This document shows positions 2,624-31,672 of a stretch of 64,000 bases of DNA, one piece after another. Location of the stretch: sequence record NC_052661.1. The stretch is one strand, 5' to 3'. Position 1 is the stretch's first letter, and each line of letters begins with the position of its first letter. Source of the stretch: Escherichia phage ukendt. A program made the translations under genes and the position numbers. Under the pieces are notes generated by a model, which did no database searches, was not told where the DNA came from, and saw only the letters and a list, made by a program, of their open reading frames with translations.

Positions 2624-3316
2624 TTAAATAGCGGTTCCTTCGAAATCCGCCACATTTACGAGATTAATATTTTCAGATTTAGAAGTCAAGTTGTTTTCTG
2701 CAACAGATTTTTCTTCAGTATCCGCCTCGTTACCTGCCACGTTACGAGGTTCTTCTTCACCGTAGGGATTACCGAATTTCAAAAGATTGATCAATTCTTC
2801 TTTGGAGAAGTTTTCTAAATCATCGTCTGTTAATTCAATAATCTCGTCTTGTTCTTCAACAAATGTTTCACCACCAGAAAAAGCATCTCGCTTTTTAGCT
2901 ACTTCCATAGCTTGTTCTGGTGTTGCCCCTGCGTCAAGAGCAGCTAAAGCAAAGTCTGACCCACTTCCTACTGCATAATATTCTTCATCAATCGGATATG
3001 CACGTGTTGGGTTGTTACCTTCGTGCAGGAAAATACGCCCGTCTGGATGAACAACAAGTGCAATAAACTCTTCATCTTCTTTATCTGGATCAGAGTGAAT
3101 CATCAAACCAGGGACAGCATCACGTGCTGCTTCGCACTGTAGATTTTGTTCAAACCATTGAAAGAAAGAAAGCACGGAGGTCAGACGACCAGCACCACCT
3201 ACAAGGTAATCTCCAATTTTTCGGACCTTTTTGAAATTAATAGAATCTACACGTCCACCAAAAGTTACCTTACCGTCACTCAAAATCTTATTTTTGGTTG
3301 CAATAATTGTCGTCAC
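2624..3316 (-). CDS. HslV-like (proteasome beta-type) Ntn-hydrolase peptidase with acidic C-terminal tail
   Basis: N-terminus MTTIIA (Thr right after Met), [32 protein letters not shown] resembles HslV NVKKVRRL...[30 protein letters not shown]; extra ~60 aa D/E-rich tail. Confidence 0.7.
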   Translation of the reverse strand: [230 protein letters not shown]

Positions 3317-3851: not shown

Positions 3852-4610
3852 TTAAATAAACACTTCAGTAATCAGTTTAGACAAACGTCCACGTTTATTA
3901 TCGTCCGTTGTCAGTTCAACATATCCAATAAAATCTACAATTGGCTCACGAACACCTTCTTCATTCTCTGGATATAAAAGTTCCAAAATTTGATGCAGAC
4001 CATTGCTACGTTTTTTAATTGCATATGTCTGGCGAACATCGCCTAATACAATAACATGCGTATTAATACCTGCACGTTCAATAAGAAGTTTAAGTGTTTC
4101 TGTTGACATAAGTTGTGCTTCGTCAATAATGACGATTGTATTATCCAGGGTAGCCCCCAACAAATAGTTAGGAATATTCAATTCGATCTTACCTGATCCA
4201 ATATCGTTTTCCAATTTGTTAGCTGTCATGAATTGCTGGAAAATACGTTTTGTAGATTCATAGTGTGCTGCTAGTTTATCTGTTTTATCCCCAGACAAGA
4301 AACCAATCTGGTCATCTCCGACTTCAGTAGGGTTCTTGATAAAAAGTAGTTTACGGAAGTCTCCTGAACGAAGCATCTGCAAAGCTTTCCATAAAGCAAC
4401 AGAGGTTTTACCAGTCCCTGCCGGAGCATTTACAACAGTCAGATCATTCCAAATCATGCTTTGAACAATCTTATTTTGGTCCCCTTCAGGCATAAATTCA
4501 TCTAAACGGTAATCGTCATTACCTACCGCTTTTGCTGCATAACGGCTTTCAATCTTTGCTGAATTAGCCAGTTTCTGCCGTTGTGTTTTAGCTGCGGTTT
4601 TATTTCCCAT
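3852..4610 (-). CDS. phoH: PhoH-like ATPase
   Basis: Walker A NAPAGTGKTSVAL and PhoH-like layout; start moved to internal ATG at 4610 (SD AAGGAG 8 nt upstream); the track's longer ORF to 4661 overlaps the lysozyme gene. Confidence 0.75.
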   Translation of the reverse strand: MGNKTAAKTQRQKLANSAKIESRYAAKAVGNDDYRLDEFMPEGDQNKIVQSMIWNDLTVVNAPAGTGKTSVALWKALQMLRSGDFRKLLFIKNPTEVGDDQIGFLSGDKTDKLAAHYESTKRIFQQFMTANKLENDIGSGKIELNIPNYLLGATLDNTIVIIDEAQLMSTETLKLLIERAGINTHVIVLGDVRQTYAIKKRSNGLHQILELLYPENEEGVREPIVDFIGYVELTTDDNKRGRLSKLITEVFI

Positions 4611-4628
4611 AGTAGCACTCCTTTTAGA

Positions 4629-4644
4629 AGGGGCCGAAGCCCCT
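4629..4644 (-). repeat. GC hairpin AGGGGC-UUCG-GCCCCU (UUCG tetraloop on transcript), copy 1
   Basis: identical 16-mer also at 10797..10812; lies between lysozyme stop and PhoH start. Confidence 0.6.
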
Positions 4645-4647
4645 TTA

Positions 4648-5148
4648 TTAGTTGTAAGCATCTAAAGTTCCAGAAGTCAGAACTTTAATTACTCGTTCAG
4701 CACGGTTTGGCGTCTGGCTATACCATCGGCTTTTACGCATGTTTTTACCTGCTTGAGTATAATATGCATTGCTGATTAAAGTCAAGCTATTTTTAAACCC
4801 TTCAGCACCTTTTAACCCCAACTGGAAAACCATGTTGATTATTCCCAATTTACGAGTATCACTCACCTTATCATAGATTGGTGATAAGATAGCACTGTTT
4901 TTTATGTCTCTCTTCACTTTTGCAACATCGTCAGCAAAGATTTGACGGGCTTCTTTTTCTGTGATAACTCCATTGGTCTTACGACCAAGGAGATTATCTA
5001 AGATTTGAATAGCCTTTGCTTTATCTTTTATTTTAGTCAGAAGGTGTCCTATGCCGACTGTCCAATAACCAAGATGATCTTGGTAAACAGTAAGCTTCAG
5101 TCCTTCATCGACTCGTAGCATATCAAACTCATCTACTACTTTAGCCAT
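4648..5148 (-). CDS. endolysin, T4 lysozyme family (GH24)
   Basis: MLRVDEGLKLTVYQDHLGYWTVGIGHLL...NMVFQLG...KSRWYSQTPNRAERV is collinear with T4 lysozyme ([28 protein letters not shown]...NMVFQMG...KSRWYNQTPNRAKRV). Confidence 0.85.
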   Translation of the reverse strand: MAKVVDEFDMLRVDEGLKLTVYQDHLGYWTVGIGHLLTKIKDKAKAIQILDNLLGRKTNGVITEKEARQIFADDVAKVKRDIKNSAILSPIYDKVSDTRKLGIINMVFQLGLKGAEGFKNSLTLISNAYYTQAGKNMRKSRWYSQTPNRAERVIKVLTSGTLDAYN

Positions 5149-5310: not shown

Positions 5311-5571
5311 TTACTCCGCAATTTGAGCCATGAGATCACGCAGTTCGGTAAAACCGCCTACGTATGTTACCTCCCCGTTCACTTCAGACAGAATTTGTGG
5401 AAATGTGCGTGGAGGAACTCCGGTAAGATCAACAACTGTTTTAGTCATTGATTCTAAATCGTAGTCTTGGTCAAGACTTAAATATTCAAACTGTTTATTG
5501 CGCATGGTTAATAGTTGTTTTGACATTTCGCAAAATTGACAGTTAGGTTTACCAAAAATTACAAATTCCAT
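5311..5571 (-). CDS. glutaredoxin/NrdH-like redoxin
   Basis: N-terminal CxxC active site (GKPNCQFCE), 86 aa, adjacent to RNR genes. Confidence 0.65.
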   Translation of the reverse strand: MEFVIFGKPNCQFCEMSKQLLTMRNKQFEYLSLDQDYDLESMTKTVVDLTGVPPRTFPQILSEVNGEVTYVGGFTELRDLMAQIAE

Positions 5572-6413
5572 TACCTCTCCTTATTAAGTAATACTGCTAA
5601 AGACCGTTCAATACCTTTATTTAAATCTGATTTTGTAAGATAGTGACTGGTTACTAATTGTGACTTCACCGGACGTGCTGCTGGAGCATTATAGGTTGAA
5701 GCTGATACCGCCGATATCTTAACAGGTTCTGGCATCTGTGTCAAGATCTTTTCCGCAAACTCCGCCCAAGAAATAAGATGGCTTCCTGCAAAATGGTAAG
5801 TCTTAACAGACCTTGACCAACCTGTTTTTAATACTTCAAAAATAGCTTCTGCTAAATCTGGAGCATATGTTGGACAAGAGAACTGATCAGCAACAATAAT
5901 AAAATCACGTTGTCCATCATTATAGCGAGACAACATGGTTTTTAGAAAGTTATTTCCAAATTCGCTATATACCGAGGCTGTTCGAATAATATATGCATTT
6001 GGGTTAACTCCTCGCACCATTTTTTCACCAAGTTCTTTCGTATACCCATAATTGTTTATTGGGTTAGGTGTAGTATCTTCAAAAATAGGATGAGAATAAT
6101 TAAAAATATAGTCTGTAGAAATATGCACAAAATCAATTTTAAGTTTACTGCACACTGCTGCAATGTTTGCAGGGCCGTAGGCATTAACAGCCAAAGCAGT
6201 AGCAAAATCATGTTCTGCTTTATCTACAGCCGTATAAGCAGCGCAATTAATAACACCATCTACATAATCTTCAATAATAGCGTTGCGCACGGCTTCAAAA
6301 TTTGTAATATCTACACGTTCTTTAGGATAAATTAAAGATACGTTTGAAGGAGCCACTTTACGTAAAGCTTGTCCCAGTTGTCCATTACCACCCAATACCA
6401 GATATGTTAGCAT
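5571..6413 (-). CDS. rmlD: dTDP-4-dehydrorhamnose reductase (RmlD-like)
   Basis: Rossmann start [17 protein letters not shown], ~280 aa, last gene of rml operon. Confidence 0.75.
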   Translation of the reverse strand: MLTYLVLGGNGQLGQALRKVAPSNVSLIYPKERVDITNFEAVRNAIIEDYVDGVINCAAYTAVDKAEHDFATALAVNAYGPANIAAVCSKLKIDFVHISTDYIFNYSHPIFEDTTPNPINNYGYTKELGEKMVRGVNPNAYIIRTASVYSEFGNNFLKTMLSRYNDGQRDFIIVADQFSCPTYAPDLAEAIFEVLKTGWSRSVKTYHFAGSHLISWAEFAEKILTQMPEPVKISAVSASTYNAPAARPVKSQLVTSHYLTKSDLNKGIERSLAVLLNKER

Positions 6414-6973
6414 ACACCCTCACTACGTAGCTGTTGAAAAGACTTAGCCATTGCATCTTTTGTTGATAAGATAGGTTTAAAATCTTCGTCAAAAATCATA
6501 TCGAAGCCCCAATCAATCCCTATATCAGGATCATCCCAACGTAAACTTTGCTCGCTGGAAGGGTCGTATGGAGTTGTGCATTTGTATTCGAAGATAGCAT
6601 CCATACTCAAGACTATAAAGCCATGTGCCAAACCAGGTGGAAGCCAGAACTGTGTATGGTGTCGTGCACGAAGAACAACACCGTCCCAAGCACCGTAAGT
6701 TGGACTGTCTTTACGTAAGTCTACAGCGAAATCCAATACTTCACCACTTACACAACGAACAAGCTTGCCTTGTGGATTATTTGTTTGGAAGTGCATTCCT
6801 CGCAAAACACCGAAGTTTGATTTAGACATGTTATCTTGAACGAAAGTTTGTTTACCAATAATATCTTCGTATTTTTGTTCATTGTATGTTTCTAAAAAGA
6901 AACCACGATCATCTTTATAAACGTCTGGTTTGATAATTACCGCACCTTCGATTTTTGTTTTTTCTACTTTCAT
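6407..6973 (-). CDS. rmlC: dTDP-4-dehydrorhamnose 3,5-epimerase (RmlC-like cupin)
   Basis: [10 protein letters not shown]...GMHFQ...[11 protein letters not shown]...YGAWDGVVL epimerase signature; start set at internal ATG 6973 (SD GGAGAG; ATGA overlap with rmlA stop). Confidence 0.75.
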
Positions 6974-7848
6974 TTTCTCTCCGCTAATTTGAGTAGGTAT
7001 TGCCCGTACTCTGTTTTCTTCAGTGAGTTTCCATGGTACACCAAAGTCTCTAAAGAAATCCACCCTTTTTTGAAAGCAATTTCTTCCAGGCACGCAATCT
7101 TCAATCCTTGGCAGTTCTCAATAGTCTGCACGAATTGACCAGCTTCCATCAGACTGGCGTGTGTTCCTGTGTCAAGCCAAGTAAATCCTCGTCCGAGAAC
7201 TTCTACTTGTAACTTCCTGTCTTCGAGGTAGCTGCGATTGATATCTGTGATCTCCAGTTCTCCACGCGAGGAAGGGGTTACTTCTAGTGCGCGTTGAACA
7301 ACAGAATTATCATAGAAATACAAACCTGTGACAGCATAATCTGATTTAGGATTTTCAGGTTTCTCTTCAATAGAAATAGCTTGACGATTACTCCCAAATT
7401 CAACCACGCCGAATCGTTCAGGATCTTTCACCAAATACCCAAAGATACAAGCTCCGCCCCAAACATCTACCATCTCACTGGCATTAATCAGTAGTTTACC
7501 AAAGCTTTGTCCGAAGAATAGGTTGTCACCTAAAATAAGAGCAACAGAGTCTTCTCCGATAAAATCTTTACCGATGATGAAAGCCTCCGCAAGACCTCGT
7601 GGCTCGGATTGGATTGCGTAAGTGAGTTTTATCCCAAACATAGACCCATCTCCGAGAAGATACTTAAAGTCTTCCTGATCGCCTGGTGTGGTGATGATTA
7701 AGATATCTTTAATGTCAGCCAACATCAATACCGATAAAGGGTAGTAGATCATGGGTTTGTCATACACAGGGAGCAATTGCTTGCTCACACTGCGTGTTAC
7801 CGGATGAAGGCGGGTTCCACTTCCTCCCGCCAAAATAATACCTTTCAT
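6970..7848 (-). CDS. rmlA: glucose-1-phosphate thymidylyltransferase (RmlA)
   Basis: [18 protein letters not shown] nucleotidyltransferase signature, 292 aa. Confidence 0.85.
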
Positions 7849-7856
7849 AACCCTCC

Positions 7857-8849
7857 TTAAATCTTCTCACTCCACCATTGAGGGTTGTTTAAGTACCATT
7901 CAATCGTTGAGTAGAGATCTTGTTCAAATGTAGAGTTTGCACTCCAACCCAGTTCAGACTCTATTTTAGAAGGATTGATTTCATAACGCAAGTCATGTCC
8001 TTTACGATCTTCAACAAAAGTTATCAAGTTGGAAGAAGGGTAGGTTCCTGCTTCTGGATGTACAGCATCCATGTAGTCACAAACCATATAGATGATCTCC
8101 ATATTGGTTTTGGGATTACGTGTTCCAATATTATACGTTTGACCTGGTTCTCCACCTGTTGCCACTTGAAGAATAGCTCGCGCATGATCCTCCACAAAAA
8201 GCCAGTCTCGCACCTGATCGCCTTTACCATACACTGGAATCTTTTTATTCGTCAAGATACTTGTGATGATTTTTGGGATCAGCTTTTCTGGATGTTGATA
8301 AGGTCCAAAGTTATTGGAGCAGTTGGTTATCACAACAGGTAAGTCGTAGGTACGGTGCCAAGCTTTCACAAGATGGTCAGATGCTGCCTTAGACGCACTG
8401 TACGGGCTTGAAGGGGCATAAGCTGTCTCTTCGGTAAAAGGAACGCCAGAGTCTGCCATATCGCCGTACACTTCGTCTGTGGAGACGTGTACGAACATCT
8501 TCAGTTTATTCTTTGGGAGGAGCCTTGCAGCTTCCAATAAATTGTATGTACCAATAATATTGGAGTCGATGAAAGCTCGTGGATTCTTGATAGAATTATC
8601 CACATGACTCTCTGCCGCTAAGTGAATGATGAAATCGGGATTGCACTCTACTACTAAACTTTTGACCTGGGCTTCGTTTGCCAAATCTGTTATACTTAGT
8701 TTAGCGTGAGTGATATCGCCTACATTCTTAATGTCTGCTGCATAGCTCATCTTATCAACGACAAAAACTTCGTTATTGGGATCTTGACAAAGAGAGCGCA
8801 CCACGGCGCTCCCAATAAAACCAAGACCACCTGTTACCAGATAGCGCAT
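7857..8849 (-). CDS. rmlB: dTDP-glucose 4,6-dehydratase (RmlB)
   Basis: [21 protein letters not shown]-binding motif, SDR YxxxK (YSASKAAS), 330 aa. Confidence 0.85.
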
Positions 8850-8858
8850 ACGTTCTCC

Positions 8859-9185
8859 TTACCAGACGTTTTGTGATACTAACGTTTCAGTTTCAATATT
8901 ATACTTATTAAGTAGTTCAAAATAGACCTCATTTGCTTTTTTATTTAAGCTTGTGAGGTCTATGGCACAAGCACCACAACCGCTACACAGCTTGATACCG
9001 AAGACACAATCTTCAGGATCTGCATCATACCACGGGGAAATGTTTTCCAAGCCCAAACCTTCGCAGAGAAACCAATTAAAGTCCCCATCGAACTGGTCTT
9101 CGACTTGTGGATCGTCTCCAAATATTTCTTTCCATTTATCATATGGTGCACCCTGTAACATACGCCATTCGATATCAATACCCAT
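8859..9185 (-). CDS. hypothetical Cys-rich protein (108 aa)
   Basis: ORF; CSGCGAC cluster. Confidence 0.45.
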   Translation of the reverse strand: MGIDIEWRMLQGAPYDKWKEIFGDDPQVEDQFDGDFNWFLCEGLGLENISPWYDADPEDCVFGIKLCSGCGACAIDLTSLNKKANEVYFELLNKYNIETETLVSQNVW

Positions 9186-9339
9186 TTTTCATCTCCTCCT
9201 CTTCTTGAGCAGCTTTAATAATTGCTTCATAAATATCGTAAGCAATGCCTCCACAACATCTAGCTTCGAAAGCTATTGCTTCTGCAATGTGATCTGTTAA
9301 TTCTCGTGGAATGCGAACATACTCTTTTTCACTCTCCAT
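9175..9339 (-). CDS. small hypothetical protein (54 aa)
   Basis: hand-translated ORF MESEKEYVRIPRELTDH...; overlaps neighbours; below track cutoff. Confidence 0.3.
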   Translation of the reverse strand: MESEKEYVRIPRELTDHIAEAIAFEARCCGGIAYDIYEAIIKAAQEEEEMKNGY

Positions 9340-9481
9340 CTTCTACCTCCAACCCTTCTTTTTCAAAGATTACTACTCGTCCTTCACCATGACAATTCAG
9401 GCAAGGAAATGTTACCATAATCTCCACTTCCATTTGTCCAGTCCCACCACACACAGGACAAAAAATAAGTTTTTCAGCCAT
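9329..9481 (-). CDS. small zinc-ribbon protein (50 aa)
   Basis: hand-translated MAEKLIFCPVCGGTG...FPCLNCHGEG (CxxC...CxxC); TAATG overlap with upstream stop. Confidence 0.4.
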   Translation of the reverse strand: MAEKLIFCPVCGGTGQMEVEIMVTFPCLNCHGEGRVVIFEKEGLEVEDGE

Positions 9482-9690
9482 TATTCCTCCTTAATTATTT
9501 CAAACTTGGCAACACCATTTACAATAATATGACCACAAGACATAACTCCTAACCAAGGATCGCCGTTTTTCTTCAGGCGTTTACCGAATACATCACAAAA
9601 ACCATTCTTCATTTCGGAGGCTTCATAAGAAGCCCCTTTGTCAAAAACGTCTTTGAATGTGTCGATTATACCAACACATCTCAGAATCAT
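9481..9690 (-). CDS. hypothetical protein (69 aa)
   Basis: ORF directly downstream of nrdB. Confidence 0.45.
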   Translation of the reverse strand: MILRCVGIIDTFKDVFDKGASYEASEMKNGFCDVFGKRLKKNGDPWLGVMSCGHIIVNGVAKFEIIKEE

Positions 9691-10775
9691 TAGAAGTCAA
9701 GCTCCTCATCATCAGAAAGATCTTTGTTAGCTGAATTCAACTTGTAATTAGTTAACTGAATCTCTTGGGCTGCTGACTGAATCAAATCAGGATTCAACCA
9801 TTTTTCCATCCAAGCTAAAGGACTATGTTTAGGTGCTTTAAACTTGGCTTTCATTTTCAATCGACGATAAATAGGAGCAGCATTGAAATAAACCCACTGT
9901 TTAGACAATTCGGCGTTAAGACCTACAATAAAACGACCTTCACTAAACAGGTAGTCACACCACTGTTCCTCTTGTTCAACAACAGTGTCGAGGATCAAAG
10001 TCAACTCTTCAATATTGTCTTCGTAAATTTTACGCCAAATTGGGTCATGCATCAATGCATCAATTACAGCATAATCCATCTTAACATGCAAGATTTCATC
10101 TAGCATAATTTTCTGGATCAGTTTACAAGCCCCAACAAACAGTTGTTGTTCTGCCATAGCAAAAGTAGCAGAGAAGGAAGATATGAACTGAATACCTTCT
10201 AATCCAATCAGGGCTACCATCCCTTTAAGAATCAGCAATCGAAGTTCATCGTTAGCTTCAATCAATCCTAGAGCATACTTATGACCAGCTTCTTCCAACT
10301 GACCCATGATATCAGCAATGATACCCATACGATTGAAAATTTTATCATTAATCATAATCTGATTGATGACTTCAATTGGATCTGGAGTACATTGACGGAT
10401 TATTTCAGAATATGTTAACGCATGGAGAACTTCCATTTCACTCTGCTTCATCATCATAGCACAGGCTTCATTGTTACTCAAGAATGGAGAGAACAAAGTG
10501 ATGATTGATTTTGCAAGAGAATCATTTTCCCATTGGAACGATAAGTTTTTAATCATAACATCATAGTTGTTTTTAGAACAAGCTACGAAATCTTTACGTG
10601 TCTGATCCAGATTGACTTCATTCTCATCCCAATCTTGTGCTTTTTGAAGTTTGTAGAGTTTATGCATTTCTGGATAAGTTACGTTAACAGAATCAAAAAT
10701 CCCTAATTGTTCTCCTAAAAATACTGGATATTTTCCTGTTTTGTAAACTTCATTGTGTAAATTAATTGCTGCCAT
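9690..10775 (-). CDS. nrdB: ribonucleotide reductase class Ia small subunit
   Basis: 361 aa, immediately downstream of nrdA; typical size and helical composition. Confidence 0.85.
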   Translation of the reverse strand: MAAINLHNEVYKTGKYPVFLGEQLGIFDSVNVTYPEMHKLYKLQKAQDWDENEVNLDQTRKDFVACSKNNYDVMIKNLSFQWENDSLAKSIITLFSPFLSNNEACAMMMKQSEMEVLHALTYSEIIRQCTPDPIEVINQIMINDKIFNRMGIIADIMGQLEEAGHKYALGLIEANDELRLLILKGMVALIGLEGIQFISSFSATFAMAEQQLFVGACKLIQKIMLDEILHVKMDYAVIDALMHDPIWRKIYEDNIEELTLILDTVVEQEEQWCDYLFSEGRFIVGLNAELSKQWVYFNAAPIYRRLKMKAKFKAPKHSPLAWMEKWLNPDLIQSAAQEIQLTNYKLNSANKDLSDDEELDF

Positions 10776-10792: not shown

Positions 10793-10812
10793 AAAAAGGG
10801 GCCGAAGCCCCT
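10793..10812 (-). terminator. intrinsic terminator/attenuator between nrdA and nrdB (hairpin copy 2)
   Basis: minus-strand RNA AGGGGC-UUCG-GCCCCU followed by UUUUUA, then SD and nrdB ATG. Confidence 0.5.
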
Positions 10813-10819
10813 AGTTTCA

Positions 10820-13060
10820 TCACATCTTGCAAGCTTCACAACCACCATCAGAATCTTCTTGTGCTAAAGAATCTGCTGATTTTGTTCTACTATTAAGGTA
10901 ATACAATGACTTACCACCCAGTCTAGCAAAGTTCAAAATAAATTTCATCTCTTCTTTAACTGATAAACGTCCCCCTACCAATTTAGAATAATCTAACCAA
11001 GAATCACAAGAAATTCCTTGGTCCGTAAACTTGGTAAAGATACCATACATTTCTGCAAGATCTTTAGCCGGAGTATCCCAGGCGGACTGGTAAAACATTT
11101 TCAGTTTTTCATAGTCTGGAACAATAAATAATACACTACCTTTCTGACTTTGTTTATACATAATAGTATCACGAACAGGATACAGAGAGTTAGTAGTATT
11201 GCTTACCAAACTGCTGGACTCATTAGGTGCAATAGCAGCCAAGACACTGTTACGGATACCACCTTGTTCAATGATTTCAGCACGTAAGCCTTCCCAGTCC
11301 ATTTTAAGATCAAAATTACCGATACTGTCTACTGTTTTAGCATAAGTGTCAATTGGTAGCCAACCTTGAGGCCATTTGGTTTTATCGATCCATTCCGCAT
11401 TGCCTTTTTCCTTAGCCAGACGCAGAGAGGCTTTTGCCAACCAAAAGTAATGACGTTCTGCAAGTTCATGCATTAATTTTTTAGCATAAGCATCTGAATA
11501 ATTTACAAAATTACTTGCCAAGTAATGCGCTAAGTTTGTAATGCCTACACCAATAGATCTACGTGCTTTAGCAGTTATTTCGTTATGTTTAAATGGATAA
11601 TCCATTGTTTCAATAACGTTGTCAATTGTCAATACAGTGTAGTATGCAACATCCTCATATTCTTCAGGTAAGACACGACCAGCAACAATAGAAGATAAGA
11701 AGCATAAAGCCAATTCTTGATCTTCTGTATTCTCACCAGTAAAGAGATCCGGCATACTGTGGAAAGCTTTAGTTGGTAAGAAGATCTCTTGACACAGGTT
11801 TGATTGATACACCGTATCCAGGAAAGGTGTATGGTTGTTAACGTTGTCAGCAAAGAACATGTAAATACGTCCTGTTTCTGCACGTTGAACAATAATCTCT
11901 GTCAGAAGATCACGAGCCTTAACAAATTTTTTCTTAATGCGACGACGGCTTACTTTGTCATAAACTGCATCAAACTCTTCTTCACTTTTATACAAAGCTT
12001 CATAAAGTTCAGGAGCATCATCACAACTAACTAACATCCAGTCTTCGTTTTTTGCTGCTCGACGCAAGAACGAACGGTTAACAACAATAGAATAATCTAG
12101 TTTGTCTACTCGTTTATCTATAGGTGTTGTTGGATTCTTCAGTCGAATCAGATCGTCGAAGTCTGGTTCAAGTATGGTAAAGGTAACTGTAGCACTACCT
12201 CCACGGCTTGCTTGCTTCGAAGCTCCAACACTATCTTCCATCCATTTCAGATACGGAAGAAGACCACCATGAATAATACGATTATTCTTAACACCTTGAC
12301 CTGTGGCACGAGTTTGAAGATTAACACCAATACCTGCGTTATTCAACGTATACTCATGAGCTAAGTAATTAGCAATGGCTAAAGATTCTGCCGTATCGTC
12401 TGCACGGAATAAACAACAAGACGCACTTCCTTTGATTGGAGTTCGTAGAGTTGTCAGATACGGCGATGGCAGATTAATCTTAAGATCGCTAACATAAGTA
12501 TAAAGTTTTTTAATATCTTCTATACGGCGTTCTTTTGGTTGGATCTCCATAACCTTCATTGCGATACCAATGAAAAGAAACTGTGGAGACTCATGCACCA
12601 CATCGTTTACTGCATCTCGAATAAGATATTTATCTACCATCTGACGTAAAACAGAATAACCATAAGTTAGATTTTTATTATGCTTTACAATCTTACCGAT
12701 TTCTTTGATCTCTTCATCAGTATAATCCATTTTAGCCCAATGTCCACGTTCTACCATATCATGATAAAAGGTATTCAGTGAAGGGATACTGTGGTATCCC
12801 CCATGAGCCTGTTTGTAAATCATACCCAGAAGAAGCCTTCCTGCCATATCACTGTAAGCTTGTGTTTTCTTGTCAATACACGCTGCAATCATTGCTTTAT
12901 GCAGATCACGTGTAGACACACCGTCATAACACCGCTTCACAGCTTCTAATTCAATTTCAGACCAGTTTAGTTTACCTGCTGCAAATTCAGACCACTTGCG
13001 AAGTTTTTCTGGATTAAACTCCTCTGTCTTACCGTTAGATTTAGTTACAAAACGAATCAA
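10820..13060 (-). CDS. nrdA: ribonucleotide reductase class Ia large subunit
   Basis: 746 aa; N-terminal ATP-cone-like region; active-site SNLCQEI (NxCxE); C-terminal Cys pair CEACKM. Confidence 0.9.
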   Translation of the reverse strand: MIRFVTKSNGKTEEFNPEKLRKWSEFAAGKLNWSEIELEAVKRCYDGVSTRDLHKAMIAACIDKKTQAYSDMAGRLLLGMIYKQAHGGYHSIPSLNTFYHDMVERGHWAKMDYTDEEIKEIGKIVKHNKNLTYGYSVLRQMVDKYLIRDAVNDVVHESPQFLFIGIAMKVMEIQPKERRIEDIKKLYTYVSDLKINLPSPYLTTLRTPIKGSASCCLFRADDTAESLAIANYLAHEYTLNNAGIGVNLQTRATGQGVKNNRIIHGGLLPYLKWMEDSVGASKQASRGGSATVTFTILEPDFDDLIRLKNPTTPIDKRVDKLDYSIVVNRSFLRRAAKNEDWMLVSCDDAPELYEALYKSEEEFDAVYDKVSRRRIKKKFVKARDLLTEIIVQRAETGRIYMFFADNVNNHTPFLDTVYQSNLCQEIFLPTKAFHSMPDLFTGENTEDQELALCFLSSIVAGRVLPEEYEDVAYYTVLTIDNVIETMDYPFKHNEITAKARRSIGVGITNLAHYLASNFVNYSDAYAKKLMHELAERHYFWLAKASLRLAKEKGNAEWIDKTKWPQGWLPIDTYAKTVDSIGNFDLKMDWEGLRAEIIEQGGIRNSVLAAIAPNESSSLVSNTTNSLYPVRDTIMYKQSQKGSVLFIVPDYEKLKMFYQSAWDTPAKDLAEMYGIFTKFTDQGISCDSWLDYSKLVGGRLSVKEEMKFILNFARLGGKSLYYLNSRTKSADSLAQEDSDGGCEACKM

Positions 13061-13331: not shown

Positions 13332-13738
13332 TGATTAGTATCATCTGCTTTCGCAGGATCATAAGAGTTACCGAAATCATCCATCTTAATATGTGACGCA
13401 CCCCAACCTGTAAATTCTTCATCACCAAAATGAAAAATATCATTTTCTTGATAGATTCGTTTAAAACCACAATTAGGTGAAACAGGGAAAGTGAAAAGCG
13501 TTGTATTTGCAAACACTACTCGCTTATCGTTATTGCTTCGGATATTCACATTACGCTCAACAGAATAGTGTGAATCTTCAGCCATACCCAGCATTACAAG
13601 CGACGCTCTAATAACAGCATTTTGTTTCTCGTGTGGGATATTACCATTGTGTTTATTTGATTCTAGTTTCCAGATAGGGGTAGACATTACAGTAGACATG
13701 CTTACGGTAGCCCAAGTTGTAGTATTTACTAATGACAT
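13328..13738 (-). CDS. hypothetical protein (~136 aa)
   Basis: start set at internal ATG (SD AAGGAG); the track's GTG start at 13771 lies inside an upstream hairpin GGGAGGAGGTGAGTCCTCCC. Confidence 0.45.
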   Translation of the reverse strand: MSLVNTTTWATVSMSTVMSTPIWKLESNKHNGNIPHEKQNAVIRASLVMLGMAEDSHYSVERNVNIRSNNDKRVVFANTTLFTFPVSPNCGFKRIYQENDIFHFGDEEFTGWGASHIKMDDFGNSYDPAKADDTNQ

Positions 13739-13836
13739 ATTTTCTCCTTCATTTTGAATGGGAGGACTCACCTCCTCCCAGTATTGTGCTATATTATACT
13801 AAAACTAATACTAAAGTCAATAACTATTTAAACAGA

Positions 13837-14835
13837 TCACCATTTAGTATGATTTGTTAAAAGTTGACGATGTTGAATCCAGCCTTTGAAATTGCCAGAC
13901 CAAAACTTACCATTACGATCTACATGGGTAATACCTGGTTCCCAAGAGTTAAAATCCCAAGGAGCATTGATAAACAAATCTTCAAAACAGTTCTCTCCAT
14001 ATTGTTCGCATGTTTCTTGAATTGGAGTGGCTTGATGTTCAAACGGAGAAGCATGAACCTTGCGCCCAGTCAGCAAGCGACCATAGATATCTAAAGCTTT
14101 ATCTTTAGTTGCATTTAAACGACGATAGCTAACCTGTGCACAACATGAAGCTGAAATAGCTTTGGCTTCTTCCAAAGTAAGCACAACAACTTCTCCAGAT
14201 TCATCTTGAACGTAGTATCCACCAAAAACAAAATGATCGTCACCTTCTGTGCCAATATTATCGTAGAAATGGTCTACATAAGGTGTGTGCCATTGCCCTG
14301 GTTTCAGAACTTCTGGTGTAGATCCTTCATACTCTTTGTGCATCTCTTTAGCCAAAGCTTCGATAGTAGGATCGGCTTCTTTGTCATCACGTAGCCACCA
14401 GAAATTTTCATATTCTGTTGCTGTCAGAACTGTTTTAATTCGTTGGAAAGGTTCCAGAAGACGGTTTGCAACTTGTTTGTGGTACCCTGCCAAAGAGAAT
14501 TCTTCTGCAAAACGTGCTGCACTAAGCGCGGCAAGATCCCACCACTCTTGAGCAGTATAACCTGCATCAATAAGAGCGTCATGATCAACACCTTTATCCT
14601 GCATACCAGGTTGGTTAGCCCCAAAACGATAAGGACGAGCAGGTTGATTTCGCACCATTTCAATCAGTGTTTTAACAGGTATAGCACGGCTAGAAGCAGC
14701 ATTACGACTGAACAGGCGGTGAGTCATCAATTCTGAATGAATAATACGTGGATATTCTAGTTCAAAAGTTACAATCTCTTTTCCGTCTTCAGTGATGGAA
14801 TGCGCAATAATACTAGCCGAAATCTGTTTTGTCAT
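13837..14835 (-). CDS. ThyX-like flavin-dependent thymidylate synthase homologue (extended)
   Basis: MTHRLFSRNAASSR matches the ThyX (R)HRxxSxxxxSxR motif; 332 aa is ~80-100 aa longer than typical ThyX. Confidence 0.55.
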   Translation of the reverse strand: MTKQISASIIAHSITEDGKEIVTFELEYPRIIHSELMTHRLFSRNAASSRAIPVKTLIEMVRNQPARPYRFGANQPGMQDKGVDHDALIDAGYTAQEWWDLAALSAARFAEEFSLAGYHKQVANRLLEPFQRIKTVLTATEYENFWWLRDDKEADPTIEALAKEMHKEYEGSTPEVLKPGQWHTPYVDHFYDNIGTEGDDHFVFGGYYVQDESGEVVVLTLEEAKAISASCCAQVSYRRLNATKDKALDIYGRLLTGRKVHASPFEHQATPIQETCEQYGENCFEDLFINAPWDFNSWEPGITHVDRNGKFWSGNFKGWIQHRQLLTNHTKW

Positions 14836-14844
14836 TTTTTCTCC

Positions 14845-15453
14845 TTAGTTTTTAAAATTGTTCAAAGTGTTAAAAACATCCAAACATGTTAGCCACTGAT
14901 CTTCTAAACCTGTGATCACAACATTTGGTTTTTTCTTTAGTTCTTCTAGATGGTTATCTTTATAAGGCGTATTAAAATATATTTTAACCACTTCATCTGG
15001 AAAATATAGTAGGTTATCAGCCCTGTCATCTATTGCTATATCACAAGGCAATAAGTATTTTTCTTTCGTAGCAAAAAAGCCGTTACCAGATCCTTTGCTA
15101 AAATCAATCGTATCTAACGTTCTTAAAACATGCTTATGTTTAGAACTTAAGTGACCACCTTTTGTCACACTTGCGATCAAAAGATTGCTACCTTTCCTTG
15201 AAACATACTTTAAGAAATCTGGCATACCTGGAACAAAACCCATTGTATCATAGAGATGAGGATTATCCAGAAATCCGTAAGGATCTATATTGAACTCCTC
15301 CCTGAAACCAGGAAAGTAGTTGGTAAGATCATAGTCTGCATTTTTTGTGAATGTGTCTATCTTAACACCAAGTCCACTAATCTTATTCAACCATTCTAAC
15401 CAAGCAATATCTAATGGAGCCACAACTAAATCCCAATCACATACTATCTGCAT
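14845..15453 (-). CDS. HAD-superfamily phosphatase, probable 5'(3')-deoxyribonucleotidase
   Basis: N-terminal DxD nucleophile (VCDWDLV) and later IAIDDRADN (motif IV-like). Confidence 0.45.
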   Translation of the reverse strand: MQIVCDWDLVVAPLDIAWLEWLNKISGLGVKIDTFTKNADYDLTNYFPGFREEFNIDPYGFLDNPHLYDTMGFVPGMPDFLKYVSRKGSNLLIASVTKGGHLSSKHKHVLRTLDTIDFSKGSGNGFFATKEKYLLPCDIAIDDRADNLLYFPDEVVKIYFNTPYKDNHLEELKKKPNVVITGLEDQWLTCLDVFNTLNNFKN

Positions 15454-15489
15454 AAAACCTCCTCTCTCTTTTAGTATAGTTATCTTATA

Positions 15490-16065
15490 CTAACTTTCAA
15501 TTTCCTGCAATAGGATTTTGACTATTTGTTTACGGCGTTTTGCTACTGTGCTTTCAGGTTCTATTTTACGCTTCTTCAGCCACGCTTTATCTTTCTTAGC
15601 TCTACACAAAGCTATCGCTTCTTTTTCAGCTTTTGCTTCTTCAAAAGATATGTCTTGCTTGTCTGCATAAGCAAGAATAGAGTTGCACAATTTACAAACC
15701 ATTCGCAAATCTTCTTCTTTCACATAGATCAAACGGAAAACAAAAAGGGGAATATCCTCAAAACATTGAAGTTGTTTTGCTGCGTGAATATGATCCACTT
15801 GGAAGTCTTTCATTCCTCCTTTATGTCCACATATTTCGCACTCACAATTCCAAACTTGTTTTGGTTTTCCAGTTTTCTTGTCTATCATTACATTGCCGTC
15901 TTTATCTACACGATCAACTTTAAAACGCCTTGCATTGATAACCTTAATTTTATTAGGGTGTCTCATCCATGCTTTTCTAAAACATCCCCTAAGATAAGTA
16001 TAAAATTCAGCTTGTGTTTTCCAGGGTGTTCCTTCACCCCACATTATTTTTGGTTCACCTGCCAA
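15490..16065 (-). CDS. HNH endonuclease (free-standing, homing-type)
   Basis: CECEICGHK...VDHIHA...CKLCN (Cys/His HNH pattern); TTG start. Confidence 0.55.
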   Translation of the reverse strand: MAGEPKIMWGEGTPWKTQAEFYTYLRGCFRKAWMRHPNKIKVINARRFKVDRVDKDGNVMIDKKTGKPKQVWNCECEICGHKGGMKDFQVDHIHAAKQLQCFEDIPLFVFRLIYVKEEDLRMVCKLCNSILAYADKQDISFEEAKAEKEAIALCRAKKDKAWLKKRKIEPESTVAKRRKQIVKILLQEIES

Positions 16066-16111
16066 TATTGCTCACCTTTTTAGCTGTATATTCCCCTGGT
16101 GGGATATTATG

Positions 16112-16144
16112 TTTAAAAAACAAAAGGCGGTCTAACCCCGCCTT
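16112..16144 (-). terminator. intrinsic terminator (minus strand)
   Basis: 7-bp stem AAGGCGG/CCGCCTT, 7-nt loop, U-tract in transcript orientation. Confidence 0.5.
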
Positions 16145-16232
16145 GCACATTGTTTCTGGAATAGTCAAAGTTAGTAAAAGTTTATCACCTTTTCGGTTGA
16201 ATATTTTATAAACTTCTCCTGCTCCATATTGT

Positions 16233-16634
16233 TTAGTATTGCTCGCCACTAATACGTTCCTTAAGTTGTTTAATAGCTTCAACTGCATCTACATAAGAAG
16301 AGTTATACATGTGTTTCAGTGCCACTCGGATTAAAGGATCTTTTGTGAAGAAATCAATAAGAAGCATAGCTTGATCATGTTTAGCTGCATTTGTCATAGA
16401 TGGATAATTTTCACGAACCATATACGTGTTATTTTGCATAAGGGTTCTTTCTAGTTCAATACAATGAATAGCTTTATCTAGGTTAATCTGACGTTCACCT
16501 TTAATACGTGTTGCATATTTTGCCAATTTGCAAAAACAAGGTGTGCCACCAACCAAATAAGCTAGTTCAATAGGTTGCATTGCCATTTTTGTGTAGTGAT
16601 CACCGTCAACCTGATTATCAAAAGCATTAGACAT
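16233..16634 (-). CDS. hypothetical protein (133 aa)
   Basis: ORF; motifs GDHY, QPIEL; function unknown. Confidence 0.5.
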   Translation of the reverse strand: MSNAFDNQVDGDHYTKMAMQPIELAYLVGGTPCFCKLAKYATRIKGERQINLDKAIHCIELERTLMQNNTYMVRENYPSMTNAAKHDQAMLLIDFFTKDPLIRVALKHMYNSSYVDAVEAIKQLKERISGEQY

Positions 16635-29751: not shown

Positions 29752-29826
29752 GGCCCTGTAGCTCAATGGGAGAGCTGTCGGCTCATAACCGATAGGTAGC
29801 TGGATCGAAACCAGCCAGGGCCACCA
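29752..29826 (+). tRNA. tRNA-Met/Ile2 (anticodon CAT)
   Basis: manual cloverleaf: acceptor GGCCCTG/CAGGGCC, D-stem GCTC/GAGC, anticodon loop CTCATAA, encoded CCA; acceptor resembles tRNA-Ile2. Confidence 0.75.
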
Positions 29827-29828
29827 AC

Positions 29829-29903
29829 GTCTTTATGGTGTAATGGATAGCACAGGAGTCTTCTAAACTCTTAGTCAAGGTTCGATTCCTTGTAAAGACA
29901 CCA
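29829..29903 (+). tRNA. tRNA-Arg (anticodon TCT)
   Basis: acceptor GTCTTTA/TAAAGAC, anticodon loop CTTCTAA, T-arm CAAGG-TTCGATT-CCTTG, CCA. Confidence 0.75.
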
Positions 29904-30099
29904 GAACATTTTAACATGAATTAGCTCAAGTGATTTGAACCCACTACTGATCATGGTGGCAGAGAATGAGGTAAGTATGTCAGACATTATAAACAAAGGC
30001 CACGGTTATATTAGAAGACATAAATGCTCGAAGAGCACCGTTCGCTGAGAACGGGGGTTGGTGGAGTCACCATTCATGGTAAAATGTTTTAAAAAACTA

Positions 30100-30128
30100 T
30101 TGACAACTAACACTATTTTATGTTAGAT
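30100..30128 (+). promoter_or_regulatory. promoter TTGACA-N18-TAGATT with extended TG
   Basis: ctaTTGACAactaacactattttatgtTAGATT; upstream of the tRNA-Ser genes. Confidence 0.45.
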
Positions 30129-30137
30129 TATAAGCAT

Positions 30138-30228
30138 GGAAGGGCAAATCGACGTGGCGACGAAAACGGTCTTGAAAACCGCCGAGCTTGAAAGAGCCTT
30201 GGGAGTTCGACTCTCCCTCCTTCCGCCA
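30138..30228 (+). tRNA. tRNA-Ser (anticodon TGA), class II
   Basis: anticodon arm ACGGT-CTTGAAA-ACCGC and long variable arm as in E. coli tRNA-Ser(UGA); 3' end TCCTTCC-G-CCA; D-region irregular. Confidence 0.6.
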
Positions 30229-30232
30229 GATT

Positions 30233-30318
30233 GGTAGATTGGTGAAATGGTAGCCACGACAGTTTGCTAAACTGTAGTCGGAAACGGCGTGTAGGTTCGA
30301 GTCCTACATCTACCGCCA
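30233..30318 (+). tRNA. tRNA-Ser (anticodon GCT), class II
   Basis: acceptor GGTAGAT/ATCTACC, anticodon arm ACAGT-TTGCTAA-ACTGT, long variable arm, G73, CCA. Confidence 0.75.
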
Positions 30319-30448
30319 AGTTCTTTTTAATGTAGCTTACTTTAGCAGAGTAAATCTTCGGCAAGTGGCGGTAACCACTTTACCGATACCTCATAGTTAG
30401 TGGTGTGAACACTGGCTATTTTAAAAAGAATTTAAATATTAGTATTTA

Positions 30449-30536
30449 GGTGAGTTAATTCCGTAGGGGTAGCGGGGCAGACTGTAAATCTGTTATCATT
30501 GCGATTCGGGTGGTTCGACTCCATCACTCACCACCA
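30449..30536 (+). tRNA. tRNA-Tyr (anticodon GTA), class II
   Basis: acceptor GGTGAGT/ACTCACC, anticodon arm GCAGA-CTGTAAA-TCTGT (as E. coli tRNA-Tyr), long variable arm, A73, CCA. Confidence 0.7.
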
Positions 30537-30542
30537 AATTAA

Positions 30543-30628
30543 GATGAGTTGGCTGAATGGTTTAAGCGGCGGACTGTTAATCCGTGTTCGAAAGAACAAT
30601 ATAGGTTCGAATCCTATACTCATCGCCA
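30543..30628 (+). tRNA. class-II (Ser-type) tRNA with anticodon GTT (Asn codons)
   Basis: acceptor GATGAGT/ACTCATC, 3-bp D-stem GCT/AGC, anticodon arm GCGGA-CTGTTAA-TCCGT, 15-nt variable hairpin GTTC-GAAA-GAAC, T-arm ATAGG-TTCGAAT-CCTAT, G73, CCA. Confidence 0.6.
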
Positions 30629-30635
30629 GAATTAT

Positions 30636-30712
30636 GGACTTGTAGAGTTAAGGTAAACCCCCAGTCGCCAATAGGCTTCTGGAATTGCAGGTATCGAATC
30701 CTGCCGAGTCCC
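30636..30712 (+). pseudogene. degenerate tRNA-like element
   Basis: acceptor-like GGACTTG/CGAGTCC and T-arm-like GCAGG-TATCGAAT-CCTGC, but no canonical anticodon arm and no CCA. Confidence 0.25.
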
Positions 30713-30718
30713 AGCATT

Positions 30719-30793
30719 GCTCCTATAGTATAATGGCTATTACAACGGTTTTGTAATCCGTGGATCTCTGTTCGATTCAGTGTGGGAGCACCA
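30719..30793 (+). tRNA. tRNA-Thr (anticodon TGT)
   Basis: acceptor GCTCCTA/TGGGAGC, anticodon loop TTTGTAA, T-loop TTCGATT, CCA; T.T mismatches in anticodon and T stems. Confidence 0.5.
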
Positions 30794-31065
30794 ACACAAC
30801 ATTAAGAGCACTGTGATTGATCGTCGTATCCTGTGCACAAGGTCTGCTCGAAAGACAGTGTTCTTAGTATTGTGTTGATCACAAAAAGAGTCACCCGAAA
30901 CTTGACCGGAGTAGGGTTGGATGGGGCAAAATGAGAAGCGGCTCTCCCATCGACAGCAACGAAGAATAATATTTGACTTTGGTTTTGTATTATTTAAGTT
31001 AGCTTACCGAACGTAGGGCTAGTCACCCAACGGGATACTCGTCACTGTCCCAATCAATAAAAGTC

Positions 31066-31095
31066 TTGACAACAAATAGTAAAATGTAGTATAGT
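31066..31095 (+). promoter_or_regulatory. promoter TTGACA-N18-TATAGT
   Basis: cTTGACAacaaatagtaaaatgtagTATAGT, ~12 nt before tRNA-Gly. Confidence 0.45.
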
Positions 31096-31106
31096 AAAGA
31101 TATAGG

Positions 31107-31180
31107 GCGTTCTTGGTGTAGCGGTAGCATTCCGTCCTTCCAAGTCGGCGGCACGAGTTCGATCCTCGTAGAACGCTCCA
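31107..31180 (+). tRNA. tRNA-Gly (anticodon TCC)
   Basis: acceptor GCGTTCT/AGAACGC, anticodon loop CTTCCAA, T-arm ACGAG-TTCGATC-CTCGT, CCA. Confidence 0.6.
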
Positions 31181-31277
31181 AATTATTTAATAAAGGGTTG
31201 CCAGAAAACTTTCTCTTTTACTCATGGTTTTCTCCTTCTCTCACACTTCTTCTGGTTGCCCTTCATTAAATGATTTT

Positions 31278-31353
31278 TGGTTTGTAGTGTAGTCCGGTAG
31301 CACACGACACTTTGACTGTCGTAGGTTTGGTTCAAATCCAGACAGACCAGCCA
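31278..31353 (+). tRNA. tRNA-Gln (anticodon TTG)
   Basis: U1-A72 acceptor TGGTTTG/CAGACCA (as in E. coli tRNA-Gln), anticodon arm CGACA-CTTTGAC-TGTCG, G73, CCA. Confidence 0.7.
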
Positions 31354-31358
31354 TATAA

Positions 31359-31435
31359 CGGAATTTAGCTCAGTTTGGTAGAGTGTACGCTTTGGGAGCG
31401 TATTGTCGCAGGTTCGAATCCTGCAATTCCGACCA
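31359..31435 (+). tRNA. tRNA-Pro (anticodon TGG)
   Basis: acceptor CGGAATT/AATTCCG, D-arm TAGCTCAGTTTGGTAGAG, anticodon arm TACGC-TTTGGGA-GCGTA, T-arm GCAGG-TTCGAAT-CCTGC, CCA. Confidence 0.8.
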
Positions 31436-31441
31436 ATTAAA

Positions 31442-31515
31442 TGTTTCGTAGTTCAATGGTAGAACCCACGACTGATAATCGTGAGACACAAGTTCGATTC
31501 TTGTCGAAACAACCA
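31442..31515 (+). tRNA. tRNA-Ile (anticodon GAT)
   Basis: acceptor TGTTTCG/CGAAACA, anticodon arm CACGA-CTGATAA-TCGTG, T-arm ACAAG-TTCGATT-CTTGT, CCA. Confidence 0.75.
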
Positions 31516-31517
31516 GT

Positions 31518-31587
31518 TTCCCGTTAGACTTACAGGATAAGAGTTCCACAGCTTATTGTGATGCTGGTTCGAATCCAGCACGGGATA
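31518..31587 (+). pseudogene. degenerate tRNA-like element
   Basis: good T-arm GCTGG-TTCGAAT-CCAGC and D-arm-like region, but short aberrant anticodon arm, 1-72 mismatch and no CCA. Confidence 0.25.
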
Positions 31588-31593
31588 CATAAT

Positions 31594-31672
31594 AGCGGGA
31601 TAGAGGAGTCTGGTCGTCCTCGCCAGTTTCATATGCTGGAGATCATTGGTTCAAATCCGATTCCCGCCTCCA
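31594..31672 (+). tRNA. tRNA-Met (anticodon CAT), 1-72 mismatched
   Basis: acceptor AGCGGGA/TCCCGCC (A1.C72), D-stem GAGG/CCTC, anticodon arm CCAGT-TTCATAT-GCTGG, T-loop TTCAAAT, CCA. Confidence 0.6.

Follow-up and report, generated by a model that had tools for sequence, protein, structure and literature searches.

A predicted dTDP-L-rhamnose pathway owned by Escherichia phage ukendt and its relatives, with a candidate glycosyltransferase cassette in close relatives

In the genome of Escherichia phage ukendt (NC_052661.1), of which we analyzed a stretch of 64,000 nucleotides (nt; hereafter the window, whose numbering is used for all coordinates unless another genome is named), four adjacent minus-strand genes, rmlB, rmlA, rmlC and rmlD, lie between the genes of a class Ia ribonucleotide reductase and a glutaredoxin-like gene (Table 1). 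RmlA converts dTTP and glucose-1-phosphate to dTDP-glucose, RmlB dehydrates this product to dTDP-4-keto-6-deoxy-glucose, RmlC epimerizes C3 and C5, and RmlD reduces C4 to give dTDP-L-rhamnose. An earlier reading of the locus (the original prediction) had described the four as a tightly coupled RmlB-A-C-D set in pathway order within the deoxynucleotide (dNTP) synthesis region of a lytic phage, flanked by nrdA and nrdB on one side and by glutaredoxin, lysozyme and PhoH genes on the other, and our analysis bore out the gene order, the coupling and the flanks. The overlaps are 4 nt for rmlA and rmlC, 7 nt for rmlC and rmlD and 1 nt for the rmlD stop and the glutaredoxin (grx) start, while rmlB and rmlA are spaced by 8 nt, and a GGAG-type ribosome-binding site precedes all four genes. 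The longest open reading frame of rmlC opens with GTG at 7093 and relatives annotate an ATG at 6973, which is the true start. A strong terminator-like hairpin (minus strand, 10797-10812) separates nrdA and nrdB, and rmlB and rmlA contain two further, weak terminator consensus matches on that strand. Because no G+C-rich hairpin followed by a T-run was found on the minus strand between nrdB and the lysozyme gene, the rml genes are probably in one transcription unit with nrdB and grx.

As an identity test we used the curated whole-protein cut-offs of NCBIfam equivalog models, which all four proteins passed: RmlB scored 431.7 bits with TIGR01181 (cut-off 365.1), RmlA 465.3 bits with TIGR01207 (360.65), RmlC 224.9 bits with TIGR01221 (155.75) and RmlD, narrowly, 237.4 bits with TIGR01214 (224.05); on the enterobacterial RmlD model the last reached 119 bits, the cut-off being 308. 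Every motif that had been quoted for these proteins (GGLGFIGS, YxxxK, the RmlA loop, GMHFQ and LGGNGQLG) is in the translations. RmlB carries GGLGFIGS, a Rossmann GxxGxxG, and YSASK, and alignment to its closest entry in the PDB, S. enterica RmlB 1g1a (E = 1.7e-111), showed a short form with two loops trimmed and with TDE and YxxxK aligned. RmlA has the N-terminal GGxGTRL nucleotide-binding loop, WLDTGT and the conserved motifs that bind sugar phosphate and metal, all aligned with the solved RmlA 4ho0, its closest PDB entry (E = 3.4e-124). In RmlC, RGMHFQ, QGKLVR, YKCT and WDDPDIG match the solved RmlC 1dzr/1ep0 residue by residue (E ~1e-55), the catalytic set of this cupin being His, Lys, Tyr and Asp. 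RmlD aligned with B. anthracis RmlD 3sc6 (E = 5.9e-44) and with 1vl0 at LGGNGQLG, ISTDYIF and YGYTK, keeping the glycine-rich loop and the Thr/Tyr/Lys triad of the short-chain dehydrogenase/reductase (SDR) family. Pairwise ratios of nonsynonymous to synonymous substitution (dN/dS) among close relatives were 0.01-0.12 across the four genes (rmlB, 0.09 against Ro121; rmlA, 0.09 against Ro121 and 0.033 against phiWec181; rmlC, 0.01-0.02; rmlD, 0.07-0.12). None of the four genes is missing or broken, they are coupled, and purifying selection acts on them; that the proteins might be catalytically dead, an outcome foreseen with the original prediction, was not borne out by these motifs and ratios, and the four genes are confirmed to encode a complete predicted dTDP-L-rhamnose pathway.

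The end product might still differ from L-rhamnose. A Tll/Tal-like C4 stereospecificity would yield dTDP-6-deoxy-L-talose, or the enzymes could supply intermediates to another 6-deoxyhexose; stereospecificity is not readable from sequence, RmlD passed its model by a narrow margin, it is ~42% identical to its nearest bacterial homologues, and the E value of its best PDB match is that of 3sc6 given above. Against this, the best database and PDB matches are all named RmlD, and both the triad and the overall alignment are RmlD-type. We therefore consider another product quite improbable, and dTDP-L-rhamnose, rather than the talose derivative, is the product predicted for RmlC-RmlD.

The window is ~98% identical in nt to its best match, Phapecoctavirus vB_EcoM-Ro121c4YLVW, and collinear with its genome; this genus consists of phAPEC8-like lytic E. 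coli myophages of ~150 kb. Over its full length the rml cluster is 97-98% identical in nt to dozens of Phapecoctavirus genomes, and it recurs at an unchanged location in >60 independent phage genomes (95-99% identity). Among 5,426 complete E. coli genomes, not one matched 80% or more of the cluster; the closest sequences in this set were the rfb genes, at ~63% nt identity. Homology searches for lineage tracing, which covered RmlD and two glycosyltransferase (GT) proteins described below, revealed a deep phage clade of RmlD homologues on contigs of 140-156 kb, with identities from 99% down to ~50%, and, after a gap, the nearest bacterial proteins found by BLASTP, at ~42%, belong to Bacteroidota, Halobacteriovorax and an Erwinia. 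Given the identity with Phapecoctavirus, the lack of an E. coli holder, the deep RmlD clade and the low dN/dS, the cluster is by all these comparisons an old possession of the phage lineage under selection, and not host DNA, a chimera or decaying sequence. The opposite view, that it is flanking bacterial sequence, an assembly chimera or a set of decaying pseudogenes, has in our estimate almost no chance of being correct. The first two of these, which had been named at the outset as what could overturn the prediction, are ruled out by the phage-wide occurrence together with the absence from E. coli genomes; in addition, the G+C content of the rml genes (0.37-0.43) resembles that of the phage (0.387 for the whole window), and the reading frames are intact with dN/dS of at most 0.12.

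The record 'Acinetobacter phage MD-2021a' (CAKLQH020000002.1) was considered as a further rml-bearing phage and rejected, being a bacterial contig with rml genes amid glnE, ilvE, aspS, btuB and a cardiolipin synthase gene. Four other records, MG065650.1, MG065656.1, OR584014.1 and OP562383.1, are labelled Campylobacter, Pseudomonas or Acinetobacter phage. RmlA identity is 97-98% for MG065650.1 and OR584014.1, identity to the GT protein gp029 of a close relative is 99-100% for MG065650.1 and OP562383.1, and MG065656.1 matches the coliphage queries at the identity of phi92-like coliphages; by these values the four host labels look doubtful.

The rml cluster of the phAPEC8 group is already annotated and published. 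More than 100 phage records hold rml genes, mostly with names annotated in GenBank/RefSeq, and RmlA and RmlB have been listed as auxiliary metabolic genes (Mathieu 2020, PMC6969025). The clusters of Phapecoctavirus and Justusliebigvirus (phAPEC8, phi92, ESCO5/13, Schickermooser, Bas60-62) have the same genes, order and position as the window, whose Rml proteins are 55-71% identical in amino acids to those of phi92; the window holds the rmlBACD variant and ESCO37 an rmlCD-only variant, and otherwise nothing essential differs. What is added here is the division into an rmlCD core and an rmlBA cassette, the complementarity with the host and a GT cassette held in common with prophages. Bacterial rmlBDAC/rfb operons and rffG/rffH encode the same four enzyme families, whose catalytic residues are kept in the phage, but the order is B-A-C-D in the phage and B-D-A-C in E. 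coli, and unlike bacterial O-antigen clusters the phage genes have no adjoining flippase, polymerase or GT genes and sit inside a putative dNTP-synthesis operon. The jumbo Sphingomonas phage PAU has rmlB-rmlC-rmlA without rmlD (6979-9458 of that genome) near thymidylate synthase, so that its dTDP-sugar genes, as here, lie by nucleotide metabolism, and Synechococcus phages S-H68 and S-B43 have rmlB and rmlC and no rmlD. With 41-56% amino acid identity and gene subsets other than that of the window, the rml genes of these three lytic phages are, on sequence grounds, independent acquisitions.

The original prediction took the pathway as a unit. All four genes are there, but only rmlC-rmlD proved to be conserved, with rmlB-rmlA optional. 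rmlC is present in 130 Stephanstirmvirinae records; with a threshold of 95% identity, RmlC matches 63 phage records and RmlA 45, the whole cluster is covered to at least 80% in 44 of 69 megablast records, and rmlB-rmlA is missing from about one third of the phapecoctaviruses. ESCO37, of the same genus, and Klebsiella phage KP13-26, of the same subfamily, carry rmlC-rmlD alone at the same site, directly after orf108, the gene that stands upstream of the rml genes in the window. Removing 6978-8853 from the window recreates the ESCO37 junction exactly, the ends being the GGAGA of two ribosome-binding sites. The G+C content at third codon positions (GC3) is 0.405 in rmlB and 0.413 in rmlA, as compared with 0.30 in rmlC, 0.23 in rmlD and 0.24-0.37 in the flanking genes, and phiWec181 is 97% identical to the window in RmlA and only 65% and 66% identical in RmlC and RmlD. 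The distribution in ESCO37 and KP13-26, the clean indel, the GC3 values and the phiWec181 identities show, as far as sequence comparison goes, that rmlC-rmlD is the conserved unit and rmlB-rmlA a later, laterally exchanged and losable module; rmlBA is predicted to be dispensable, and natural variants without it exist. A 'second' rmlA/rmlB pair in ESCO5 (PMC10269720) was considered and turned out to be the same pair, that paper describing a presence/absence polymorphism of rmlBA.

KP13-16, a more distant member of the subfamily, has neither rml genes nor orf108, and its glutaredoxin gene directly follows nrdB, indicating that insertion of the rml genes, with orf108, separated the reductase from the presumed redoxin. 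orf108 stands upstream of rmlB or rmlC in phi92, ESCO37, KP13-26 and the window; its product matches phrog_15453, of unknown function, and had no Pfam or NCBIfam match. The ESCO37 allele of orf108 is closer to the phi92 allele than to that of the window, and the region beside the rmlBA indel is therefore mosaic.

We then compared the two modules with what hosts provide. DNA resembling phage rmlA/rmlB was detected by blastn in 5,423 of the 5,426 complete E. coli genomes, whereas rfbC was detected in 2,674 and rfbD in 2,386. Every member of the Enterobacterales has rffH/rffG, which serve the synthesis of enterobacterial common antigen, beside any rfbA/rfbB. Because rmlA/B-like DNA is nearly universal, dTDP-4-keto-6-deoxy-glucose should be on hand in essentially every host, and the last two steps appear to be missing in about half. 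A phage dependent on dTDP-rhamnose in hosts of many serotypes would then have to bring exactly rmlC and rmlD, and rmlB and rmlA would only raise flux; we infer that this host complementarity explains the nested distribution of the rml genes. It also predicts that rmlCD matter only on hosts without rfbC/rfbD.

The original prediction stated that no GT is visible in the window. This held in the literal sense: the four GT proteins of a close relative gave no tblastn match in the window, and the corresponding part of the relative has no annotated GT gene. The statement is misleading all the same, as the relative holds four adjacent GT genes, gp027-gp030 (13,401-16,545 of its genome), ~17 kb past the right end of the window, flanked by small lysis-like genes and by primase/helicase and DNA polymerase genes. 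They encode two GT-A-like and two GT4-like GT-B proteins, the GT-A and GT-B folds being confirmed; gp029 and gp030 are paralogues (42% identical), sequence comparison of the GT proteins with the PDB gave nothing usable, and none of the cassette proteins has a transmembrane-grade segment (highest 19-residue Kyte-Doolittle mean, 1.65). Nor were homologues annotated of the GtrABC seroconversion module, which consists of a membrane-embedded GtrA flippase, GtrB and a serotype-specific Gtr transferase. Across phage records the tblastn identity bands of gp029 (39/24/66) and RmlC (39/24/67) are nearly equal, indicating that the GT and rml loci were co-inherited across the subfamily, and the distribution is nested: records with rmlBA do not outnumber those with rmlCD, which in turn do not outnumber those with the GT cassette. 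The four-gene cassette is the predicted consumer of dTDP-rhamnose.

The same cassette, in the form of a gp027-like gene, a gp028-like gene and one GT-B gene, was found in temperate prophages of Enterobacter, Serratia and Pseudomonas (Table 1), always in the interval from the lysis genes to HNH/terminase, where cargo genes typically sit. The Enterobacter copy is joined by a divergent SDR resembling nucleoside diphosphate (NDP)-hexose 4,6-dehydratases (TIGR01181, 180 bits, below the cut-off), which on its sequence is an independent link of the cassette to 6-deoxyhexose chemistry. Within the subfamily, the KP13-16 cassette consists of a gp027-like gene, a gp028-like gene and one GT-B gene, and KP13-26 has a gp027-like gene, one gp029-type GT-B gene and gp031, plus rmlCD; a gp028-like gene was not found in the fetched part of the KP13-26 genome. 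The idea that gp030, the second GT-B paralogue, tracks rmlCD was dropped, KP13-26 having rmlCD with a single GT-B. Outside these phages, Burkholderia dolosa JAIMDN010000082.1 (3025-8440) has a GT-B homologue (P0240, 45% identity) after an intimin/invasin-like adhesin gene and a gene for a 571-aa protein of unknown function, a neighbourhood that may weakly hint at protein glycosylation.

Table 1. Features of the rml locus in window numbering, and GT cassettes of temperate prophages in the loci named
Feature	Position	Strand	Remarks
rmlB	7857-8849	-	330 aa; first half of the rmlB-rmlA cassette
rmlA, glucose-1-phosphate thymidylyltransferase	6970-7848	-	292 aa; other half of the accessory cassette
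rmlC, dTDP-4-dehydrorhamnose 3,5-epimerase	6407-6973	-	188 aa; conserved core
rmlD, dTDP-4-dehydrorhamnose reductase	5571-6413	-	280 aa; conserved core
rmlB-rmlA indel cassette	6978-8853	-	1,876 bp; GGAGA ribosome-binding-site repeats at 8854-8858 and 6978-6982
orf108	8859-9185	-	acidic 108-aa protein; directly upstream of the rml genes
Glutaredoxin (NrdC-like)	5311-5571	-	86 aa; weak glutaredoxin-family matches
nrdA, class Ia ribonucleotide reductase	10820-13060	-	NCBIfam match
nrdB, class Ia ribonucleotide reductase	9690-10775	-	NCBIfam match
Phage lysozyme	4648-5148		Pfam Phage_lysozyme
PhoH	3852-4661		other flank, beyond lysozyme
Prophage GT cassette, L009	7797-10921		
Prophage GT cassette, L012	5589-7670		
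Prophage GT cassette, L011	9357-10960		
Prophage GT cassette, L014	714-2317		

Three targets had been put forward for the activated sugar, namely phage DNA, virion proteins and host O-antigen or lipopolysaccharide, and DNA is the one that our results support least. The idea is that phage GTs place rhamnose from dTDP-rhamnose on a hydroxylated or hydroxymethylated pyrimidine, as in the glucosyl-hydroxymethylcytosine of T4 or the arabinosyl-5-hydroxycytosine of RB69, DLP3 and HY126. The cluster lies within the nucleotide-metabolism block, and Olsen 2020 (PMC7552041), calling its location in the DNA-metabolism region 'peculiar', suggested rhamnosylation of hydroxymethylated nucleotides. There is also a precedent: RB69, DLP3 and HY126, with their Afh genes, combine a phage sugar-nucleotide pathway, a ThyA-like base hydroxylase and several GT-B proteins to produce restriction-resistant DNA (PMC13326640), which in the phage-encoded sugar supply and the number of GT-B proteins is like the present case, and the GT of HY126 and those of T4 are structural neighbours of gp029. 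Furthermore, gp028 gave weak matches to TAGT (Pfam, E = 1.3e-3) and to beta-glucosyl-HMC alpha-GT (phrog_842, E = 4e-6). As an identity for gp028, however, TAGT or another DNA-GT was rejected, TAGT ranking only 23rd-24th among the viral structural matches, after generic GT2-like proteins.

Known glycosylated phage DNAs resist restriction (PMC13326640), but phi92-like phages, a sister genus that shares these rml and GT genes, are reported to be 'exceptionally susceptible' to restriction-modification (RM) 'despite a putative dTDP glycosylation machinery' (Maffei 2021, PMC8594841). A ThyA-type hydroxylase or hydroxymethylase, which the arabinosylating phages and T4 have, is absent from the window and from the annotation of the relative's 151.7-kb genome; the sugar differs as well, being a dTDP-6-deoxyhexose here and UDP-arabinose (RB69, DLP3, HY126) or UDP-glucose (T4) there. 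The prophages hold their two- or three-gene GT cassettes without a base-activating enzyme. Together, the RM sensitivity of the sister genus, the lack of an annotated ThyA-type enzyme, the prophage cassettes without a base-activating partner and the distance of gp028 from TAGT make bulk DNA an unlikely acceptor, and we rate hypermodification of this kind as improbable. The acceptors that remain are therefore a protein, of the virion or of the host, or an envelope glycan intermediate, between which the data do not choose.

One gene nearby could bear on base activation. The product of 13837-14835 (minus strand, 332 aa) is a divergent, flavoenzyme-type ThyX-like protein (Pfam Thy1, 33 bits; TIGR02170, 31 bits, cut-off 87.9) with THRLFSRNAASSR at the position expected for the ThyX signature RHRxxS and with a ~150-aa C-terminal extension; no PDB entry matched it by sequence. 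It could be a phage thymidylate synthase of the ordinary kind or have another identity; KP13-16, although it lacks rml genes, has a gene at this position too, a point against its service in DNA rhamnosylation. A variant in which this flavoenzyme begins a sparse or site-specific rhamnosylation of phage DNA is less likely than the virion-protein glycan proposed below. The ThyX-like gene adjoins one for an NT5C-like 5'-deoxynucleotidase (14845-15453, minus strand), and the same long minus-strand block holds, downstream of PhoH, a gene for an HslV/proteasome-like peptidase (2624-3316, minus strand). Farther along, ten tRNA genes (Met x2, Arg, Ser, Asn, Thr, Gly, Gln, Pro, Ile) lie at 29752-31672 on the plus strand, where coding switches from minus to plus; the cumulative GC skew has its minimum at ~28-29 kb.

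The results led us to a reading to which we give an even chance, namely that the cluster secures a host-independent supply of dTDP-rhamnose for phage GTs acting on a target other than bulk DNA. In it, a phage-owned dTDP-L-rhamnose pathway would be transcribed together with the phage deoxynucleotide genes; RffH and RffG of any Enterobacterales host would give dTDP-4-keto-6-deoxy-glucose, and the phage pathway would guarantee the sugar donor in any host, with rmlB-rmlA as an optional booster. The donor would most likely be consumed by the soluble GT cassette of the phage, for assembly of a glycan with rhamnose whose carrier would be a protein, of the virion or otherwise, or a host envelope glycan intermediate. 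The first part draws on the enzyme identity, intactness, selection, phage ownership, nested distribution and host gap described above; use of the donor by the cassette, and the nature of the acceptor, we infer. A more specific proposal, that a GT cassette common to 150-kb lytic myophages and temperate prophages is fed by the rml genes and places a rhamnose glycan on a virion protein, is one that we put forward tentatively and think rather unlikely as a whole.

Several points weigh against this supply for phage GTs. The rml and GT loci are ~75 kb apart in the relative, and they occur together largely through common descent within one subfamily. A GT cassette without any rml genes is present in KP13-16 and in the prophages, so the cassette is not strictly dependent on a phage-made donor. 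Fold searches with gp028 and gp029 gave generic GT-A/GT2-like and GT4-like neighbours, not rhamnosyltransferases or enzymes for a particular acceptor, and the sugars that GT4 enzymes usually take are linked to UDP, GDP or ADP. Divergent rfbC/rfbD alleles may have escaped the blastn survey of hosts. In the searchable literature we found no glycosylated virion protein reported for this phage group, no experiment that ties the rml genes to the GT cassette and no experimental work on rml function.

It is also conceivable that the pathway manipulates metabolism without any glycosyl transfer, RmlC and RmlD draining dTDP-4-keto-6-deoxy-glucose from common-antigen and O-antigen synthesis and dTDP-L-rhamnose inhibiting host RmlA/RffH, so that dTTP and glucose-1-phosphate are spared for phage DNA or the production of surface glycans is shut off. 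RmlA is inhibited by dTDP-L-rhamnose, the rml genes sit between nrdB and glutaredoxin, probably in one transcription unit with dNTP-synthesis genes, and the conserved core is precisely the two steps that lead from the common-antigen intermediate to rhamnose. However, many phages also keep rmlA and rmlB under purifying selection, and both consume dTTP, unlike what pure sparing of dTTP would call for, and the co-inherited four-GT cassette is left unexplained. We regard this explanation as unlikely, although somewhat less so than DNA hypermodification.

Donor supply to phage GTs has parallels among other viruses. The UDP-L-rhamnose pathway of Mimivirus, the capsid glycans of chloroviruses and the virion glycosylation of mycobacteriophages use UDP- or GDP-sugars, and their glycoproteins have been demonstrated. 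By comparison, the GT genes considered here adjoin lysis-like and replication genes rather than structural genes.

Candidates for phage therapy include phapecoctaviruses and phi92-like phages, whose host ranges are very broad, and why such phages carry a pathway for a cell-envelope sugar has been a puzzle. A virion protein as acceptor would make this the first system to glycosylate virions among phages that infect Gram-negative bacteria, and one that provides its own sugar donor in the manner of giant viruses. With either a virion protein or a glycan of the host surface as target, the modification may affect host range, the immune recognition of therapeutic phages and superinfection.

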